Positions 4,877 through 45,847 of a stretch of 64,000 nucleotides of DNA are shown here, piece by piece; the first letter of the stretch is position 1; each line of letters begins with the position of its first letter. A model generated the notes under the pieces. The model saw only the letters and a program-made list of their open reading frames with translations. It did not search any database and was not told where the DNA came from. The stretch covers positions 205,437 to 269,436 of the forward strand of contig JBGSRU010000002.1 of NCBI GenBank assembly GCA_041737385.1, given 5' to 3'. The stretch is from Candidatus Saccharimonadales bacterium. GTDB lineage: Bacteria; Patescibacteriota; Saccharimonadia; Saccharimonadales; SZUA-47. A program made the position numbers and the translations under genes.

Positions 4877-4915
4877 TTGACATATAGCATACTAGTATGC
4901 TAGTATATTAGTATG
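4877..4915 (+). promoter_or_regulatory. Promoter with three 8-bp-phased CTAG/TTAG repeats in front of the TrpR-family gene
   Basis: TTGACA 4877-4882, 18-nt spacer, TAGTAT 4901-4906, ATG 4913 only 6 nt later. Half sites ACTAGT 4891-4896, GCTAGT 4899-4904 and ATTAGT 4907-4912. CATACTAGTATG is a perfect 12-nt palindrome. Confidence 0.5.
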
Positions 4916-5161
4916 AGTAATTTTAGTTCAGTCGTAGAAATCATTAATGCTATCAGGGATAAGGAAGTCCTTGAAGATTTTTTAGTGGGTATAACAACGC
5001 CTAAAGAACGATTAGAAATAGGCCAAAGGCTGGAGATAGTTGAACGACTTCTCAAGAAAGAACCTCAGCATAAAATAGCTGAGGTTCTTGGTGTGGGTGT
5101 TGCTACTGTTACACGAGGCTCTAAAGAGCTACAAGCTGGAAAATTTAAGGTTCTTCGGTAA
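4913..5161 (+). CDS. TrpR-family (YerC/YecD-like) helix-turn-helix protein
   Basis: 82 aa. ...TPKERLEIGQRLEIV..L......QHKIAEVLGVGVATVTRGSKEL is typical of the YerC/YecD Trp-repressor-like family. Confidence 0.8.
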   Translation: MSNFSSVVEIINAIRDKEVLEDFLVGITTPKERLEIGQRLEIVERLLKKEPQHKIAEVLGVGVATVTRGSKELQAGKFKVLR

Positions 5162-5166
5162 ATGTT

Positions 5167-5300
5167 ATGAAAACGAGCATGACTATTACTAACTACGGTC
5201 AATTTGGCTCATGGCAAAACGTCACACTGCGTTGGCGGAGCTGCTCTATTTGATTTGAAATATAAATATAGAAATTATATCCGCCAACAGGCGGTTTTTT
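5167..5300 (+). promoter_or_regulatory. Short-ORF leader 3: 28-codon ORF plus antiterminator/terminator
   Basis: ORF 5167-5253 encodes MKTSMTITNYGQFGSWQNVTLRWRSCSI. Hairpin CCGCC 5281-5285 / GGCGG 5290-5294 is followed by T6. GTTGGCGGA 5231-5239 is the exact complement of TCCGCCAAC 5280-5288. Confidence 0.5.
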
Positions 5301-7200: not shown

Positions 7201-8241
7201 ATGAGAGCAATGAATAAACAAGTAATATTAACTGGTCTTCGGACGAATGCTGACTATCATCTTGGTAATTATATAGGTGCACTACTTCCAATGGTGCAAA
7301 TGGTAGAGAAACACGCAGCTGACTATCAAATAAATCTGTTTGCACCCGACCTACACAGTTTTACTACACCTATTGAGCATTGTGAGTTTTACCAGCAAAC
7401 AATAGAAAACCTCAAACTGTTTGTCGCAGCTGGTTTCCCAATCGATAACGAAAATGTCTATTTGTACCGTCAAAGTCGTGTTCCTGCGCATTCGGAACTT
7501 GCTTGGATTTTGACAAATTTTACTGGTTTTGGTGAAATGGGACGGATGGTCGAATTTAAAGATAAAGCGGAACGACTCAGCGAAGATCGTGTATCAGTTG
7601 GACTATTTGAGTATCCAATACTCATGGCGGCAGATATACTTTTATACGGCGCAAAATATATACCTCTAGGTGAAGACCAGAGACAACACCTAGAATTTAC
7701 GCGGGATATTGCGCAAAGAATGAACAGCCAGTTTGGGGAGTTGTTTGTTGTTCCTGAAAATCTTGAAAATCAGCAAAAGTTTATCGATAGAGACTCTGCC
7801 CCGAGAATTAGAAGCTTACGAGATCCTACAAAAAAGATGAGTAAATCTGTTGAAGATCCTGCAGGAACGATTAAGCTTAGTGATTCATCTGATGATGCAA
7901 AGAAGAAGATTATGAGCGCTACAACAGATAATGTAGGCGCTGTTCATTTCGATTGGGATAATCAGCCTGGCGTAACGAATTTACTACAAATACTCGCACT
8001 TCTATCAGGGAGAGCTCAAACTGAAGTAAATGCTGAATGGGAAGGAAATGAACGCTACGGCGATCTAAAGAAAGCTGTAGCTGAAGTCGTTGCTAAAACG
8101 CTAACATCTATTCAAGAAAAGATGAAACTGATAGATGAGAACGAACTTATCATGAAAATTGAATCAAGCGAAGAGTTTATGAACGTGCAAGCAAATGACA
8201 CTCTTTTTAAAGTGCAAAAAGCTATTGGTCTTAGAGAGTAG
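7201..8241 (+). CDS. trpS: Tryptophan--tRNA ligase
   Basis: 346 aa. HLGNY (HIGH-type) and KMSKS motifs, with class I TrpRS length and layout. AAGGAG RBS. Confidence 0.95.
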   Translation: MRAMNKQVILTGLRTNADYHLGNYIGALLPMVQMVEKHAADYQINLFAPDLHSFTTPIEHCEFYQQTIENLKLFVAAGFPIDNENVYLYRQSRVPAHSELAWILTNFTGFGEMGRMVEFKDKAERLSEDRVSVGLFEYPILMAADILLYGAKYIPLGEDQRQHLEFTRDIAQRMNSQFGELFVVPENLENQQKFIDRDSAPRIRSLRDPTKKMSKSVEDPAGTIKLSDSSDDAKKKIMSATTDNVGAVHFDWDNQPGVTNLLQILALLSGRAQTEVNAEWEGNERYGDLKKAVAEVVAKTLTSIQEKMKLIDENELIMKIESSEEFMNVQANDTLFKVQKAIGLRE

Positions 8242-38845: not shown

Positions 38846-39625
38846 ATGGATGAAGGAAGCTCGCAAGCTTTCACCCAGCCACCGGCTATGCCACCACAGG
38901 TAGCGTCTAGTACACCACCTGTAGCGGTTAGCGAAGCGTCTGGTGTGTATAGCAACATACAAATTAAATCCGCTATTGAGCGCGGGCATATTGTATTTCA
39001 CCCTTATATTGAAGAGCATATTGCAGGAAGTAGCATAGACGTCACACTTGGCCACTGGTATTACCGAACGGAAAAGAATAGTAACGGTGGCTTCTATAAT
39101 CCTTTCGACGAAGGAGACGTTAAGAATTATTTTGATGGTGCGCTGAACGCCGAAACACATGAAATATGGGCTGAGAAGAATGGACGCAAAATGTTTGCTG
39201 GCATCCCGCCCGAACATCCAATCATTGTGCTCGCACCAGGGGAACGAATACTTGCTCATACACACGAATTCATAGGTATAAAAGCACCCGGAACAAGCAC
39301 AATGCAAGCGAGAAGTACTTGGGGACGGAATGGCGTTGCTGTTTGTTTAGACGCGGGCTGGGGAGATCCTGGCTATATCAATCGGTGGACAATGGAAATT
39401 TATAATATGAATCAGCATCATAGTGTAGTGTTGCCCGTCGGTGAGCGAATAGCACAAATTGTGTTTTATCATACTGGCCCTGTTGACGGACAATACAAAC
39501 AGATCAGTGGCAAATACCAGAGCGATACTGACAATGATCTCACCAAACTCATGCAAGATTGGCGCCCCGAACATATGTTGCCGCGAGGCTATAAAGATAA
39601 ACGAAGAAAGCCGGAGTCACTATGA
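38846..39625 (+). CDS. dcd: dCTP deaminase / dUTPase-superfamily protein with Pro-rich N-terminal extension
   Basis: SSIDVTLG, the LAPGE..LA.T.E region and GW.GPG..N.WT.E are typical of the Dcd family. Confidence 0.8.
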   Translation: MDEGSSQAFTQPPAMPPQVASSTPPVAVSEASGVYSNIQIKSAIERGHIVFHPYIEEHIAGSSIDVTLGHWYYRTEKNSNGGFYNPFDEGDVKNYFDGALNAETHEIWAEKNGRKMFAGIPPEHPIIVLAPGERILAHTHEFIGIKAPGTSTMQARSTWGRNGVAVCLDAGWGDPGYINRWTMEIYNMNQHHSVVLPVGERIAQIVFYHTGPVDGQYKQISGKYQSDTDNDLTKLMQDWRPEHMLPRGYKDKRRKPESL

Positions 39626-41946
39626 GCGATACAGCAAAGCAAACAAACGGTAAATTCTTTGTTATTGAAGGAACTGATGCAAGTGGTAAAACAACTCAGT
39701 TCACCATGCTCGCTGAAAAACTCGCCAAAGAAGGCTATGATGTCGTGACCTTTGACTTTCCGCAGTATGATCAAGAGTCTAGTTTCTATGTTCGCGAATA
39801 CCTTGCAGGTAAATACGGTGAGGCCGACCAAGTTGGCCCGTATACCGCAAGTGTCTTCTACGCGCTTGATCGTTATGCGGCGAAGGATGCCATTGCCCGT
39901 GCACTAGCAGACGGGAAAATAGTACTCGCAAACAGGTTTACTGGCAGTAATATGGCGCATCAAGGCACGAAGTTCGATCATCCGGAAGAACGAAGAGGTT
40001 ATTTTATTTGGTTAGATAACCTTGAGTACCAAATGCTTGGAATCCCTCGACCAACAGTGAGTGTCGTACTACGCGTTGATGCTGATACAAGCAAAGCATT
40101 ACTTGACGAAAGAGCAGCTGCAAACCCAGAGCGAGACAAAGATATTCACGAAACAAACCTCAGTCATCTTAAACGATCGGTGGACGTCTATGATGACCTA
40201 TGCGCTTTGTTTCCAAAAGACTTCTACAGAGTCGACTGCGTGCGCAACAAACAACTACTCACTAGAGAGCAAATACACGATTTAGTGTGGGGGACCGTCG
40301 AACCTTTTTTACCCCAGCCAAATAGTGAAAAAGGCTCCTTAAGCAAAGGCGCAGACAGCCACGCTCCATATGTCGGCAAAGACGCACTTGGTAATCCGTC
40401 AATGACTGAAGCCGGCAAGGCATTCTTAAAAGGTGCGGTGACCAATACAGATGACAACGTCTATGCGTTTAGTGATGCAATGAGCCCTATAACGATCGCA
40501 GCTGCCATGGCGAGGCTCAGTCGACGAGCTGACGATATGCGCATCACGATACTTGATGAATTTGCCAATGCTGCGACTAAAAAGGATGATGCGCTACTCC
40601 GCCGTGTTATTACTGCCTACGGTGATGACTCAGTACAGCAACTCGTTGGACAACATGTTGTGGTAGAAGGAGCAAGCAATCTGCTCACTAAGAAGCTAGA
40701 ATGGGGAAGACTCGCATCATATTTAGAGCAATCAACTCGCTACATATTCTTTGACCAAAAAGATGAAAACGGTAATTATAAGTACGTTGTACCGTCACAT
40801 TTTGATAAGAAAACACTACAGTCATACGTCGAAATTAACGATGAGATATTTGATACCTATTCAGAAATGGTGCGGGAGTTAACTGAATACGTTCGAAATA
40901 ACTCTAACACTCCTAAAGATGAGCGAGATTTTGCATGGAAGGGTGCTACTAAAGCGCAAGCTTGTGACGCAATACGCTCTGTCTTGCCTGTATCTACCAA
41001 GTCAACTGTCGGTATATTTGCATCAGGGCAAGCACTAGAGAGCCTCATCATGCATTTATTGAGCGACGAACTACCAGAATCGCGCGAAACGGGCGAAAAG
41101 ATGCTCCGAGAAGGCCGAAAAGTATTAAGTACTTTCTTAGAGCGTGCAGATAAGCCAGAGCGTGGTGGTGCGACAGTTGCCTATACTGCTACTACTCGTT
41201 CGTCTGTGAGAGAACTCGCCAGTAGGATGTTGCCAGCAACGCACACCTCTACTTCGCAAGCGGTTGATCTTATTAACTACTGGCCGAAAAACGAGCTCGA
41301 TCTTGTGCCTGACATGTTATATGAGCACAGCAATTTATCACTTCGAGATATCCAAAAGGCAGTGAATACTTGGGACTACAGTGAGAAAGAAAAAGTATTT
41401 CAGGCTTATATGGGTGAGCGATTAAACAGACGACATAAACCTGGGCGTGCTATCGAAAAAGCTCATTATTCATGGGATCTTGTCTGCGATTACGGTATAT
41501 TTCGTGACTTACAGCGCCATAGAATGGTCGACGACCTAACGTGGCAAGATTTGACACCACGATATGGCTACGATGTGCCTGAGCTCGTCGAAGAAGCAGG
41601 CCAAACGGAGAAGTTTCAACACTGTTTTGATCTTAGCTTAAAGTTGCACAGCATTCTCGTATCTGCTGGATTTGAAAAAGAAGCACAGTATGCGACACTA
41701 CTTGGTCATAAAATGCGTTGGAAAATCACCATGAATGCTCGTCAATCGTTCCATTTTAATGAACTACGCACAACGCCGCACGGACATCCGGGCTACCGTA
41801 AGCTAGTAAGAGAAATGCATGAAAAACTATCTGAAAAACACCCACTACTTGGCGCGGCTATGAAATTCGTCAACCAAGATGAAGATCCAGAATTAACAAG
41901 GCTAGCAGCTGAACGCGCCACGCAGTTTAAATTAGAAAATATGTAA
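39622..41946 (+). CDS. tmk/thyX: Fusion protein: dTMP kinase (N-terminal) plus enlarged FAD-dependent thymidylate synthase ThyX (C-terminal)
   Basis: 774 aa. FFVIEGTDASGKTTQ P-loop and Tmk fold in the first ~215 aa. ThyX signature FRDLQRHRM near aa 640 with ThyX-like flanks. ATGA overlap with dcd. Confidence 0.85.
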   Translation: MSDTAKQTNGKFFVIEGTDASGKTTQFTMLAEKLAKEGYDVVTFDFPQYDQESSFYVREYLAGKYGEADQVGPYTASVFYALDRYAAKDAIARALADGKIVLANRFTGSNMAHQGTKFDHPEERRGYFIWLDNLEYQMLGIPRPTVSVVLRVDADTSKALLDERAAANPERDKDIHETNLSHLKRSVDVYDDLCALFPKDFYRVDCVRNKQLLTREQIHDLVWGTVEPFLPQPNSEKGSLSKGADSHAPYVGKDALGNPSMTEAGKAFLKGAVTNTDDNVYAFSDAMSPITIAAAMARLSRRADDMRITILDEFANAATKKDDALLRRVITAYGDDSVQQLVGQHVVVEGASNLLTKKLEWGRLASYLEQSTRYIFFDQKDENGNYKYVVPSHFDKKTLQSYVEINDEIFDTYSEMVRELTEYVRNNSNTPKDERDFAWKGATKAQACDAIRSVLPVSTKSTVGIFASGQALESLIMHLLSDELPESRETGEKMLREGRKVLSTFLERADKPERGGATVAYTATTRSSVRELASRMLPATHTSTSQAVDLINYWPKNELDLVPDMLYEHSNLSLRDIQKAVNTWDYSEKEKVFQAYMGERLNRRHKPGRAIEKAHYSWDLVCDYGIFRDLQRHRMVDDLTWQDLTPRYGYDVPELVEEAGQTEKFQHCFDLSLKLHSILVSAGFEKEAQYATLLGHKMRWKITMNARQSFHFNELRTTPHGHPGYRKLVREMHEKLSEKHPLLGAAMKFVNQDEDPELTRLAAERATQFKLENM

Positions 41947-43515
41947 CTAAGCCACTACAGGTTGACCAAATACAGCTATATTACCAATATTTTCAGCTTT
42001 TACTTTAAGTCTGTTTCTTGATTGACCATTTATTTCAACCGTTGTTGATTTAAGTCGGGTTTTTCTATCATGAATTGAAGCAAGAGAAGTTATAGTATCT
42101 TTTAGGTCAAAATCCAACCCTGCTTTACGTAGTTTATATAGAATATGAGCCGACAAACCGAGTCTGCTATCGTTACGAGCATCTTTTGTTAGAACTTGAA
42201 TCTCAACTGGTACAGCAATCCTCTCCCCGATTGCATTAGTAGTTTGAACAACAATTGTCTGTTTGGCAACTTCAAAATCAAATAAACCAGTTTCTGTCTC
42301 GATGTTTTCGGAATAGCCACTTAGCGCAGTTGCTTGTCTGATAAACTTCTGCGAACCTTTTACATACCTACTACTATTTTTTGAAGCTGCTATAGTAGCA
42401 TCAACTCCATCAATTTGAGTCAAACTCTTCATTCGTTTGAAAACTTGACCTGTTTGTTCTAAGGTATCTGTAATTATTGTAGTTGCAAATATATCTGCAA
42501 TATTAGCACTCTTATATGTGTCGGTAAGTAGTTTTCTCGCAATTGATGCTTTTGATTTTAGCCTCCACACAGTAACAAGGTGATCTAAAGACTGATTTCC
42601 TAGGTCTAACGCTAGAAGTGCATCCCCGATTTTCCTGTCAGGATCAGTTACTACATGTTCAAGCTCAAACCCATCTTTAAGGTGTAATTTTTCATAAATT
42701 CCATATATAGCTTCATCGTCAATACCGCGTAGAATTACATCTGCTGCAACAAGCTTATCTCCATTGCCAGACTTTTCTAATCTTGTTGTCCACGCTTGAT
42801 CAGTTAACGACATAGCGATACCATCATAACCAAGTATCTCACAAAGAGGAGCGTAAAAATATTCAGCTTCAAATACATCCTGTAACAGAGCTGCGTCTCT
42901 TTTAGGTGGGTTTCGAAGATTATCTAATATTTCCAGTGCCTTAATAACTACCGATTCAAGATTTACGTTTTTTAGTAACGTCAGCATTTCTTTTGGATTA
43001 CATATACCTGAAGGCACGAGCCAAAATTCTTCAGGCAAAGCATCTTTTTCACCATTTTGAATTGCATTAATAAATTTAGCTTCTAGCTCTTTATTTCCTT
43101 CAAATGAGCTTCCAGCCGAAATAGTAGAACTTGCACTGCGTCTATAGCCTTCTGCTTGGTGCTCGATATCATCCATATCGTTCACTAAGGCTGACACATA
43201 CTCCTGAGTACTTGGATCAACCGATTCAAAAAAAGTATATAAAGAATTGTAAAATGCATCAGATTTTCCATCTCTATCAGGAATATCATGTAAAATTGCT
43301 GCAAGAATTGATTCTTTTGGAAAAATTGATGGACCATACTGTTCTAGTAGCGTGCTGACTCTTCTAGGATGAGCGTAGTCTCGATTATGTGTGTCCCCAT
43401 TAACTAAAGCCAGCATAACATCATCAACACTAGCTATTGCTTGGTCTATGGTTGGTACTTCAGGATGTTGCTCTATCGCATCAAAAGCAGGTTCTAGTTG
43501 TTGTAATTCACTCAT
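41947..43515 (-). CDS. RelA/SpoT-homolog (HD hydrolase plus (p)ppGpp synthetase domains, no C-terminal regulatory domains)
   Basis: 522 aa. HD motif AILHDIPDR, and synthetase-like WRLKSKASIARKL and VPVEIQVLT (EIQIRT-type) motifs. Confidence 0.75.
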   Translation of the reverse strand: MSELQQLEPAFDAIEQHPEVPTIDQAIASVDDVMLALVNGDTHNRDYAHPRRVSTLLEQYGPSIFPKESILAAILHDIPDRDGKSDAFYNSLYTFFESVDPSTQEYVSALVNDMDDIEHQAEGYRRSASSTISAGSSFEGNKELEAKFINAIQNGEKDALPEEFWLVPSGICNPKEMLTLLKNVNLESVVIKALEILDNLRNPPKRDAALLQDVFEAEYFYAPLCEILGYDGIAMSLTDQAWTTRLEKSGNGDKLVAADVILRGIDDEAIYGIYEKLHLKDGFELEHVVTDPDRKIGDALLALDLGNQSLDHLVTVWRLKSKASIARKLLTDTYKSANIADIFATTIITDTLEQTGQVFKRMKSLTQIDGVDATIAASKNSSRYVKGSQKFIRQATALSGYSENIETETGLFDFEVAKQTIVVQTTNAIGERIAVPVEIQVLTKDARNDSRLGLSAHILYKLRKAGLDFDLKDTITSLASIHDRKTRLKSTTVEINGQSRNRLKVKAENIGNIAVFGQPVVA

Positions 43516-43591
43516 CTCAACTGTATATTATATCATAGTTATGCTTACTATGTCAAGAGTTATATAGACTTTTATTTCAACGAGATTGCTG

Positions 43592-43749
43592 TATACTGTA
43601 TTAACAATGACAACATACATGCAAAACGACACCCTCATTCTCGTTAGCCTCAATGGGCTGTGCTCAAAGCATGGTTGTAAGTCTCGCGTTTAAATAACGC
43701 AATCACAGTCCAAACAAAAGTAGACTTCCAACCAAAAGGAAGTTTTTTT
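43592..43749 (+). promoter_or_regulatory. Short-ORF leader 4: 28-codon ORF plus antiterminator/terminator
   Basis: TATACT 43592-43597, 9 nt, ATG 43607. ORF 43607-43693 encodes MTTYMQNDTLILVSLNGLCSKHGCKSRV. Hairpin ACTTCC 43724-43729 / GGAAGT 43738-43743 is followed by a T-run. GTAAGTCT 43677-43684 pairs 7/8 with AGACTTCC 43722-43729. Confidence 0.45.
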
Positions 43750-43771
43750 AATTTGTAGAAAGGAAATAGAT

Positions 43772-44101
43772 ATGTTTGTTAATGCAGATATGCGGCCACT
43801 CACACCGAGTAATGAAGAGGTGGATGGTTGTACACAGGATTGGAGCAATAGATCAGGACACTCGTATAAAAGATTAGGTTTTGATGAAGGAGCTTCAGAA
43901 GCAGGTCATTCGTTTGATGGCTTAACTGATGAACAAAGAGAAATCCAGCTAATTGATTTCGAAAAAGACATGCGGAAGTGGAAAGAACAGAACGATCAGT
44001 GGGTATACGCACATAACGTCGTTCGACCAAAAAGAGAAGTAGTAGAGTTTTACAGAAAAATGGATATTGAATCAAAAAACATAACCAGAGGAGACGAATA
44101 A
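43772..44101 (+). CDS. Hypothetical protein (109 aa)
   Basis: ORF with an AAAGGAAA RBS just after leader 4. Confidence 0.5.
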   Translation: MFVNADMRPLTPSNEEVDGCTQDWSNRSGHSYKRLGFDEGASEAGHSFDGLTDEQREIQLIDFEKDMRKWKEQNDQWVYAHNVVRPKREVVEFYRKMDIESKNITRGDE

Positions 44102-44406
44102 TGAGTCCAGTAGAATTTACAGAAATCGGAGAGGCAATTGTCCCTACATCGAAACAAGATCAAGGAAGGATTATTACTAGCGTGATGCGTTCTGGGGGCC
44201 GTTATCGTCAATTCTTGCAGACACATGGCGTTGAATTAGCTACAGATGATTGGGTTGGATTACCTGGTGCAGAAGTGGCAGCAACTATTTTAGCTCAAGT
44301 AGTAGAAACTGTTGATTCAATTAACCCTATTGGAGCTCGTGAGACTACGCTACGAACTGAAGCAGTACATTCATTGGGGCGCTTAGGTGTTGGGATCGTA
44401 GAATAA
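44101..44406 (+). CDS. Hypothetical small acidic protein (101 aa)
   Basis: TAATG overlap with the upstream ORF. Confidence 0.5.
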   Translation: MSPVEFTEIGEAIVPTSKQDQGRIITSVMRSGGRYRQFLQTHGVELATDDWVGLPGAEVAATILAQVVETVDSINPIGARETTLRTEAVHSLGRLGVGIVE

Positions 44407-44433: not shown

Positions 44434-44462
44434 TTGAGTCAACTATCTGCATATGTTATAAT
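44434..44462 (+). promoter_or_regulatory. Promoter of the rplJ-rplL operon
   Basis: TTGAGT 44434-44439, 17-nt spacer, TATAAT 44457-44462. Confidence 0.55.
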
Positions 44463-44790
44463 TGTTTTGTTACCGAAGACAGTGGCTGCCATAGAATAAG
44501 GCTTAATTGTGCCACCGAGGCGATATGATTAGCAATAATCATAATTGTATTCGAGCACTAGGATGCGTCTTCTGGATTAACCCAAGGAGACGTTTTTTAT
44601 TTCTCGGTAACAAATCACTAAAATAGGTCGATAGATTAGTGAAAAAACTAATGACAAAGGAAGGATGCTTTACTGCAGCTCTTGTAGCCAATAGGAAAAA
44701 GAGCAGCCGGAAGAGAAGATTCATTCGACTCTACCGCGCGCCTAAGAAAAAACCATAGGTTTTGTCTTGAGTAGCGAAGCGGAATATTAA
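44463..44790 (+). promoter_or_regulatory. Long rplJ 5' leader with internal terminator-like hairpin (candidate L10-type autoregulatory leader)
   Basis: About 320 nt lie between the promoter and the rplJ ATG. CGTCTTC 44566-44572 pairs with GGAGACG 44586-44592, followed by T6. Position is analogous to the L10 leaders of other bacteria. The family assignment was not verified. Confidence 0.4.
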
Positions 44791-45771: not shown

Positions 45772-45811
45772 CAATAAGATTTTTAGAATTTAGATTCTAG
45801 ATTTTAGATAA

Positions 45812-45847
45812 AAAACCGCTTAGATTAAAATCGAAGCGGTTTTTTGT
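45812..45847 (+). terminator. Intrinsic terminator after rplL
   Basis: AACCGCTT...AAGCGGTT hairpin followed by TTTTT. Confidence 0.7.

Follow-up and report, generated by a model that had tools for sequence, protein, structure and literature searches.

Anatomy of the element

The DNA analyzed here is a 64,000-nucleotide (nt) stretch of contig JBGSRU010000002.1 from a Candidatus Saccharimonadales bacterium (hereafter referred to as the window). On its plus strand, positions 43607-43749 contain a short open reading frame (ORF) and an intrinsic terminator, lying between a divergently oriented gene for a RelA/SpoT-domain protein and two small ORFs of 109 and 101 amino acids (ORF109 and ORF101), which are followed by the L10 leader and rplJ (Table 1). 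This element is probably a ribosome-dependent transcription attenuator belonging to a family conserved across Saccharibacteria. The evidence bearing on this interpretation consists of the conservation of the element in related loci, alternative helices with covariation, a conserved ORF with a conserved position of its stop codon, and a conserved run of codons. A previous sequence-only reading of this region had listed the opposite-strand RelA/SpoT gene, the hexamer TATACT, the 28-codon ORF, the hairpin and the T-run, all of which are present, together with the two small ORFs and the L10 leader/rplJ region that the element precedes. It had interpreted the whole as a leader with a short ORF and a conditional terminator, rather than as the terminator of a neighboring gene, and the conservation of both the ORF and an antiterminator supports this interpretation.

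The hairpin ACTTCC (43724-29)/GGAAGT (43738-43) extends to AGACTTCC/GGAAGTTT (43722-45), with an 8-nt loop, and is associated with a run of seven T. Among the runs of six or more T on the two strands of the window, 127 in all, it ranks 8th. Hairpins at least as strong as -6.4 kcal/mol accompany 2.8% of the 106 intragenic T-runs, versus 7 of the 21 intergenic T-runs, and the combination of hairpin and T-run is, therefore, unlikely to be due to chance.

The antiterminator is formed by GGTTGTAAGTCT (43673-84) and AGACTTCCAACC (43722-33), with 11 of 12 positions paired (-12.6 kcal/mol), and is more stable than the terminator (-8.8 kcal/mol). Its 3' strand consists of the 5' arm of the terminator and half the terminator loop. 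The best duplex between the upstream region and positions 43720-33 (-14.3 kcal/mol) was equalled in 0.5% of 2000 dinucleotide shuffles (p = 0.005). A duplex test limited to the 5' arm of the terminator (43720-29) had suggested that there was no antiterminator (p = 0.19), but this possibility was rejected when the loop half (to 43733) was included. The 8-nt alternative pairing proposed earlier (GTAAGTCT/AGACTTCC) is thus at chance level when considered alone, but it constitutes the core of the conserved 12-nt antiterminator, for which covariation is observed.

The P0 and P1 helices have the sequence GGGCT in common and are mutually exclusive. P1 encloses the antiterminator strand and P2, its 5' strand is also used by the 5' hairpin, and P1 is present when the minimum-energy fold of the window leader is computed without constraints. 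We propose that P1 acts as an anti-antiterminator.

Table 1. Positions of the leader element and of neighboring features in the window.
Feature	Coordinates	Strand	Remarks
Putative leader promoter	43569..43597	+	-35-like CTTTTA 43569-74, 17-nt spacer, -10 TATACT 43592-97; 9 nt to ATG 43607
Leader short ORF, 28 codons and TAA	43607..43693	+	MTTYMQNDTLILVSLNGLCSKHGCKSRV; homologous frame open in 39/40 family members
Branched-chain codon run CTC ATT CTC GTT (AGC) CTC	43634..43651	+	Candidate regulatory or stall codons
P0 hairpin AGCCT/GGGCT, loop CAAT	43646..43659	+	-5.8 kcal/mol
P1 helix TGGGCTGTG (43654-62) with CACAGTCCA (43704-12)	43654..43712	+	-13.8 kcal/mol
Antiterminator 5' strand GGTTGTAAGTCT	43673..43684	+	Short ORF codons 23-26; pairs with 43722-33
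P2 hairpin GCGTT/AACGC	43686..43700	+	-5.6 kcal/mol; short ORF stop TAA 43691-93 in loop
Intrinsic terminator AGACTTCC/loop AACCAAAA/GGAAGTTT and T-run 43743-49	43722..43749	+	-8.4 to -8.8 kcal/mol
Ribosome-binding site (RBS) AGAAAGGAA	43757-65	+	Precedes ORF109
ORF109	43772-44101	+	Proposed controlled gene
ORF101	44101-44406	+	Own RBS GAGGAG; proposed controlled gene
L10 leader (RF00557)	44455-44607		Rfam match; followed by rplJ
RelA/SpoT-domain gene (PF04607)	41947-43515	-	5' end of gene at 43515
Divergent promoter of RelA/SpoT-domain gene TTGACA-18-(TGa)TATAAT	43527..43556	-	12/12 consensus match; 11 nt from -10 to ATG

A family of elements between tmk-thyX and rplJ

Relatives were gathered with a scan for the L10 protein, which yielded 132 Saccharibacteria loci (designated below by L and a number). 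In blastn comparisons with a 256-nt intergenic query, the matches displayed 71-76% identity over 105-124 nt, covering window positions 43634-43768, and they persisted in loci with an L10 protein only about 60% identical to that of the window. A covariance model (hereafter referred to as R1) was built from 16 other core Saccharibacteria loci, with the window left out. It assigned a score of 48.2 bits to window positions 43618-43748, with an E-value of about 1e-8 (the E-values of this model are rough, its calibration having been shortened), and this was the only match in the 64 kb. The same model identified 40 loci at E < 1e-3, all between tmk-thyX and rplJ, and the inclusion of weaker matches increased this number to about 47 of 133 sources. 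The matching segments have in common the short ORF, the nearly invariant core GGGCUGUGCUUCAC..GGUUGAAGCCUCGCG, a small hairpin carrying UAA in its loop, the sequence CACAG(U/C)CC, an A-rich linker and a terminator of the form AAGUAGGCUUC-AACCA-GAAGCCUACUUUUUU.

No Rfam 15 family matched the element at the gathering threshold, the window containing only tRNAs and the L10 leader by this criterion, and nothing was obtained for the core homologues either. The best sub-threshold match on 43480-43800 scored 18 bits, and the matches obtained in scans with E-value thresholds did not exceed chance level. Neither Rfam 15 nor the full-text literature searched yielded a description of such an element. The leader family is apparently undescribed, and would belong to the known class of leader-peptide attenuators; it would represent an attenuator in a phylum in which we found none described, located ahead of small genes with no known family.

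Conserved alternative helices

The two competing states were evaluated over 40 sequences, in an alignment fitted to the terminator state and thus biased toward the figures for this state and against those for the antiterminator state. The terminator state, with P1 and P2, had 90.7% of its cells paired, with 18 of 24 pairs changed on both sides, a result reached in none of 500 shuffles. The antiterminator state, with the 5' hairpin (Pm1, P0), had 88.4% of its cells paired, versus 27-48% when the partners were slid. The terminator helix of the family was 94.4% paired, with changes on both sides for 9 of 11 pairs, and the corresponding values for P1 were 95.8% of cells and 6 of 10 pairs. The family antiterminator helix (11-12 base pairs, bp) was 90-94% paired. 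For P0, 93% of cells were paired, with one-sided changes only. The P2 stem varies in sequence, but the hairpin is retained (GGATC/GATCC, GAGC/GCTC and GTGATT/AATCAC in homologues).

The antiterminator helix was also identified as the consensus structure by RNAalifold, on a MAFFT alignment that had not been fitted to any structure. Compensatory changes from A-U to G-C (three sequences) and from C-G to U-A (five sequences) were found in this helix, and P0 was also present in the consensus. Further compensated loci include L064, with GGUUGGAGCCU facing AGGCUCCAAUC, and L082 and the window clade, with AAGUCU facing AGACUU.

A divergent copy was observed in L029 (2765-2898), in which the GGUUGAAGCC strand is degenerate. 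In this copy, the 3' strand of P1 and the 5' arm of the terminator (GCCCGAG) overlap, such that the role of antiterminator would fall to P1 itself, in a trp-like 1:2/2:3/3:4 layout.

Coding evidence for the short ORF

The short ORF of the family has 23-35 codons. Between the conserved 5' motif and the end of the antiterminator strand, the frame encoding G-L-C is uninterrupted in 39 of 40 sequences, versus 12 and seven for the two remaining frames. In 39 of the 40 sequences, the stop codon lies 0-18 nt past the antiterminator strand, usually in the P2 loop, and it is TAA in 30. Because of small indels, the reading frame of the homologous GGUUGRAGYCU segment differs between clades, with all three frames represented (33, 4 and 3 sequences): it is read as V-E-A in the core, L-E-S in L001, L003 and L054, and G-C-K in the window. 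The end point of the predicted translation is, thus, conserved, but the peptide encoded there is not.

Upstream from this segment, 39 homologues have a run of four to six Leu/Ile/Val/Phe codons. At the five codons of the run, U is found at position 2 in 32-39 of the 39 sequences, depending on the codon, with variation at positions 1 and 3 (NUY codons), and this period-3 pattern can therefore be considered a coding signature. CTC accounts for 61 of the 78 Leu codons of the family run. The window short ORF has three CTC codons and one CTG codon for Leu, both of which are used less frequently in the window than any other Leu codon (12% and 10%, respectively). The window and L081 have the start of the short ORF, ATGACAAC(A/C), in common. 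At the peptide level, the conserved motif is hydrophobic-(S/G)-x-x-G-L-C-F; the N-terminal and hydrophobic parts are conserved, and the C-terminal third differs between clades (VEASR, RLESR, GCKSR). We considered the possibility of a lipoprotein or signal peptide, but rejected it, because the residue preceding the Cys (position -1) is an L, and because the ORF is not long enough and its C-terminal frame changes between clades.

These features bear on the question of whether the hairpin might be an ordinary operon-end terminator. The divergent position of the element had been put forward as excluding this possibility. This argument is valid for the window, in which the upstream gene is on the opposite strand, but not for the family, as the element lies no more than 16 nt after thyX in at least 14 of 31 relatives. 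An ordinary terminator is excluded instead by the conservation of the short ORF, of the placement of its stop codon and of the antiterminator: even the copies located after thyX carry the ORF and the antiterminator.

Initiation and the tmk-thyX context

In at least 14 of the 31 loci in which the end of thyX could be mapped, the short ORF starts at most 16 nt after the tmk-thyX stop codon, suggesting translational coupling. Eleven loci, the window among them, have other genes inserted between thyX and the element. In these loci, a sigma-70-like -10 hexamer is often found 5-10 nt before the ATG of the short ORF: TTTACA-17-TAAGAT, 8 nt to the ATG, in L001; TTTACA-18-TACAAT, 6 nt, in L054; TTGTCA-16-TATAAT, 10 nt, in L026; TTGACA-16-TATTAT, 5 nt, in L051; and TTGACA-17-TATAAA, 8 nt, in L085 and L022. 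A hexamer at this distance implies that the short ORF is leaderless. The suggestion that TATACT serves as a promoter in the window is plausible and gains support from the hexamers at the other thyX-separated loci. The transcription start site would then lie at about 43604-07, yielding a leaderless mRNA for the short ORF.

The 774-amino acid protein encoded at 39622-41946 appears to be a thymidylate kinase-ThyX fusion, and it is conserved in 66 related loci. The tmk-thyX gene (ending at 41946) and the convergent RelA/SpoT-domain gene are directly adjacent, with no intervening nucleotides, and no terminator was detected there on either strand. As tmk-thyX has no terminator of its own, antisense read-through could reach the leader terminator, which could thus have the extra role of stopping transcription that has crossed the RelA/SpoT gene from tmk-thyX. 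Such a role would explain neither the short ORF nor the antiterminator.

The mRNA of the RelA/SpoT-domain gene would itself be leaderless or nearly so, given the 11 nt separating the -10 hexamer of its extended sigma-70 promoter from its ATG. The encoded protein has no relative with more than about 31% identity among 5.8 billion sequences. A direct search for homologous loci via this protein yielded no match in genome contigs, with relatives (28-31% identity) found only among proteins.

Proposed attenuation mechanism

We propose that the element operates as follows. RNA polymerase would start at about 43604-07, from TATACT, and a ribosome would begin translation of the leaderless 28-codon ORF. 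If translation proceeded smoothly, the ribosome at the TAA in the P2 loop would cover the antiterminator strand (43673-84); on its release, P1 (43654-62 with 43704-12) would close around this strand, the terminator (43722-49) would fold and the transcript would end before ORF109. A ribosome stalled on the Leu/Ile/Val codons (43634-51) would block the 5' strand of P1 and leave 43673-84 free to pair with 43722-33 before the 3' arm of the terminator was made; no terminator would form, and ORF109 and ORF101 would be transcribed. In a leader without ribosomes, P1, P2 and the terminator would form. When ribosome footprints were masked in folds of the window leader, the outcome was P1, P2 and the terminator in the absence of a ribosome, an 11-bp antiterminator without terminator for a ribosome on the Leu/Ile/Val run, and the terminator for a ribosome at the stop codon. 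We infer the start site, the translation of the short ORF and the direction of the response; in the simplest reading, the signal would be the supply of branched-chain aminoacyl-tRNA.

The architecture resembles that of the enterobacterial leaders (trpL, leuL, ilvL/ivbL, pheL, hisL and thrL), which also have a short ORF with a run of regulatory codons, an intrinsic terminator immediately preceding the first gene, an antiterminator making use of the 5' arm of the terminator, a stop codon placed such that the terminating ribosome covers the antiterminator strand, and a third helix favoring termination in the free leader. The Leu/Ile/Val run is most similar to those of ilvL and ivbL. However, the element displays no sequence or Rfam relationship to these leaders (15.8 bits for Phe_leader, versus a threshold of 55 bits). 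Unlike them, it has a P1 helix that encloses the antiterminator strand rather than pairing with it, initiation that would be leaderless or thyX-coupled rather than driven by a Shine-Dalgarno sequence, and controlled genes that are variable small ORFs rather than biosynthetic genes, with an M20 peptidase gene further downstream in many relatives.

Several observations weigh against an amino acid-responsive attenuator. The start site, termination and read-through are predictions from sequence. The -35 element of the window is poor (2/6), so the promoter was missed by a consensus promoter scan, and the short ORF has no Shine-Dalgarno sequence. The sequences compared are phylogenetically related, and the alignment for the terminator state was fitted to its own structure. 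In minimum-energy folds, the terminator was retained in 29, 26 and 35 of 38 sequences over the three masked states; as most core-clade copies retain the longer terminator at equilibrium, the switch would have to be kinetic, operating during transcription. The codon run is mixed (Leu/Ile/Val/Phe) and short (four to six codons). Saccharibacteria are described as having reduced genomes lacking many essential pathways (PMC11665869). The link between the amino acid sensed and the genes controlled is missing, because the downstream ORFs are unrelated, small and of no known function. Finally, the strong conservation of GGGCUGUGCUUCAC..GGUUGAAGCCUCGCG could reflect a ligand- or protein-binding core.

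Alternative interpretations

It is conceivable, albeit doubtful, that the element does not sense amino acids at all, but is a lineage-specific switch reporting translation status or a host signal and turning on hypervariable small proteins, which could be candidate factors of the episymbiotic lifestyle. In this reading, the terminated product of about 145 nt, or the peptide, might also act in trans, and P1 and the antiterminator might form a pseudoknotted sensing fold.

The main alternative concerning the signal, which we consider unlikely, is a ribosome-dependent attenuator in which stalling is due to the nascent peptide, to an antibiotic or to general translation stress, as for the bmrB-bmrCD, erm and mef leaders and tnaC, in which case read-through would report the state of translation. 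All the architectural evidence for an amino acid-responsive attenuator applies equally to this possibility, the motif hydrophobic-(S/G)-x-x-G-L-C-F could act in the exit tunnel, and the genes downstream have no link to branched-chain amino acids. Ribosome-mediated attenuators of this non-amino-acid type have been documented in Gram-positive bacteria (PMC4191407, PMC4335068). In the Bacillus subtilis bmrB-bmrCD leader and the mef/mel and erm leaders, as proposed here, occupancy of the leader ORF by the ribosome selects between terminator and antiterminator, and the genes controlled are not biosynthetic. However, those leaders control drug efflux or resistance and respond to antibiotics, whereas no resistance or transporter genes lie downstream from the element, and nothing in the data points to drug-dependent stalling. 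Moreover, the G-L-C codons coincide with the P1 strand, making it impossible to separate peptide conservation from RNA conservation, and conservation between clades does not extend to the C-terminal third of the peptide.

Another possibility, which we judge improbable, is a riboswitch or protein-binding leader working independently of translation, with P1, P2 and the junction around GGUUGAAGCC as the aptamer and an ORF that is tolerated or secondary; the bound ligand or protein would stabilize P1 and withhold the antiterminator strand, such that the terminator formed. The nucleotides of P1 and the junction are near-invariant, with no synonymous variation (GGG CTG TGC is fixed), P1 and P2 display covariation, and the absence of a Shine-Dalgarno sequence from the short ORF would also be consistent with this explanation. 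The A-rich linker between P1 and the terminator would permit a pseudoknot between P1 and the antiterminator. Nevertheless, an untranslated aptamer would not be expected to have a frame open in 39 of 40 sequences, a period-3 NUY run and a stop codon held in place through three registers, and the -10 hexamers located close enough to the ATG for a leaderless short ORF likewise favor a translated ORF. Three pairs of competing helices overlapping the coding sequence can alone account for the nucleotide conservation, and no Rfam family matches.

It is very unlikely that the element is an independent small gene with a constitutive terminator, its transcript of about 145 nt encoding a hydrophobic microprotein or acting as a small RNA and the downstream ORFs being expressed only by leakage: it does have its own promoter-like element and terminator, the N-terminal and hydrophobic parts of the peptide are conserved, and both small RNAs derived from attenuators and trans-acting leader peptides are known in Sinorhizobium (PMC7298713, PMC7968998), but a constitutive terminator needs neither a conserved competing helix of 11-12 bp, with its compensatory changes, nor a stop codon fixed beside the antiterminator helix, the C-terminal part of the peptide shifts frame between clades, and the RBS always lies about 10-30 nt past the T-run, as in a 5' leader.

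Downstream genes and implications

ORF109 and ORF101 matched no Pfam or PHROGs family. No relative of ORF109 was found among 5.8 billion proteins or in JGI metagenome contigs, and its AlphaFold model, with a mean predicted local distance difference test score (pLDDT) of 51, was unusable. A promoter between the terminator and ORF109 was considered and rejected: TTTAAT (43747-52) has no -35 element at 16-19 nt, and the promoter scan revealed none. The T-run and the RBS are too close together to accommodate a promoter, so ORF109 and ORF101 would have to be transcribed through the terminator. In the relatives, the genes downstream from the element are unrelated small ORFs (55-150 amino acids), often acidic, with a good Shine-Dalgarno sequence and no Pfam family, their RBS being located about 10-30 nt after the T-run in all cases. 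In many core loci, the gene immediately preceding the L10 leader encodes an M20 peptidase (PF01546), which is absent from the window, and one relative has an AstE/AspA-like protein at this position.

Saccharibacteria and other Patescibacteria have tiny genomes, with few regulators and no amino-acid biosynthesis; to our knowledge, almost nothing is known about their gene regulation. If the element functions as proposed, it would provide direct evidence of coupled transcription-translation and of ribosome-mediated attenuation in this phylum, and a testable handle on sensing by episymbionts, of host-supplied branched-chain amino acids, for example. It would also mark rapidly changing and otherwise unannotatable small genes as a regulated unit, and suggest that regulatory ORFs in these bacteria make use of leaderless or coupled initiation. 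Model R1 can be used immediately to annotate the element across Patescibacteria genomes.

Other leaders and terminators in the window

The sequence-only reading had presented the element as the fourth member of a family including three other leaders of the window (members 1-3; 1700-1816, 2799-2917 and 5167-5300). These leaders resemble the element in having a short ORF (22-28 codons) with an antiterminator strand 7-12 nt ahead of its stop codon, a terminator, a TTTTTAAT tail and an RBS. However, their peptides (MKQIQNYFDFFWYTTLTEAASF, MNIVKNIFIGNWYFNNYSWRYCYV and MKTSMTITNYGQFGSWQNVTLRWRSCSI) are rich in aromatic residues (F, W, Y), no run of this kind being present in the short-ORF peptide of the element, and their stems are of the CCGCC/GGCGG type. 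Model R1 matched the window only once and did not match members 1-3 (a one-way comparison, no model having been built from these members), and only the T-run, RBS and ATG were common to all four in a four-way alignment. The assignment to a single family was, therefore, not upheld; the four leaders appear to share architecture, but not ancestry. The resemblance to member 2 noted after the T-run is real as text, but generic: the TTTTTAAT tail (T-run, AAT(T)(T), Shine-Dalgarno sequence) is a general feature of terminators in the window and in the homologues.

Members 1-3 nevertheless look like real leader-peptide attenuators, of another family. In all three, the antiterminator strand is GGCGG and lies 8-12 nt upstream from the stop codon (p = 0.003, 0.002 and 0.026, respectively, for the pairing in shuffle tests). 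Member 1, which precedes a LysE-type exporter gene, gave a sub-threshold match to the Rfam family Phe_leader (31.5 bits, E = 0.019). Member 3 precedes an operon encoding a class-I Trp/Tyr tRNA synthetase (7201-8241) that lies next to a TrpR-family gene. This gene, immediately upstream from member 3 (4913-5161), encodes an 82-amino acid Trp-repressor-family protein (PF01371, E = 2e-17), and the leader ORF of member 3, which contains two Trp codons, starts 5 nt after its stop codon.

The L10 leader, located 700 nt downstream from the element, was detected in the window and in all the relatives checked. Like the element, this leader lies in this intergenic corridor and acts in cis, with an expression platform of the terminator type, but it differs in having its own promoter (44434-62), binding a protein and containing no ORF, and the two are unrelated in sequence. 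The L10 leader ends in a terminator-like hairpin (44565-44598, -13.7 kcal/mol) followed by six T, and a symmetrical bidirectional terminator is present after rplL (45810-45845, -12.5 kcal/mol on both strands).

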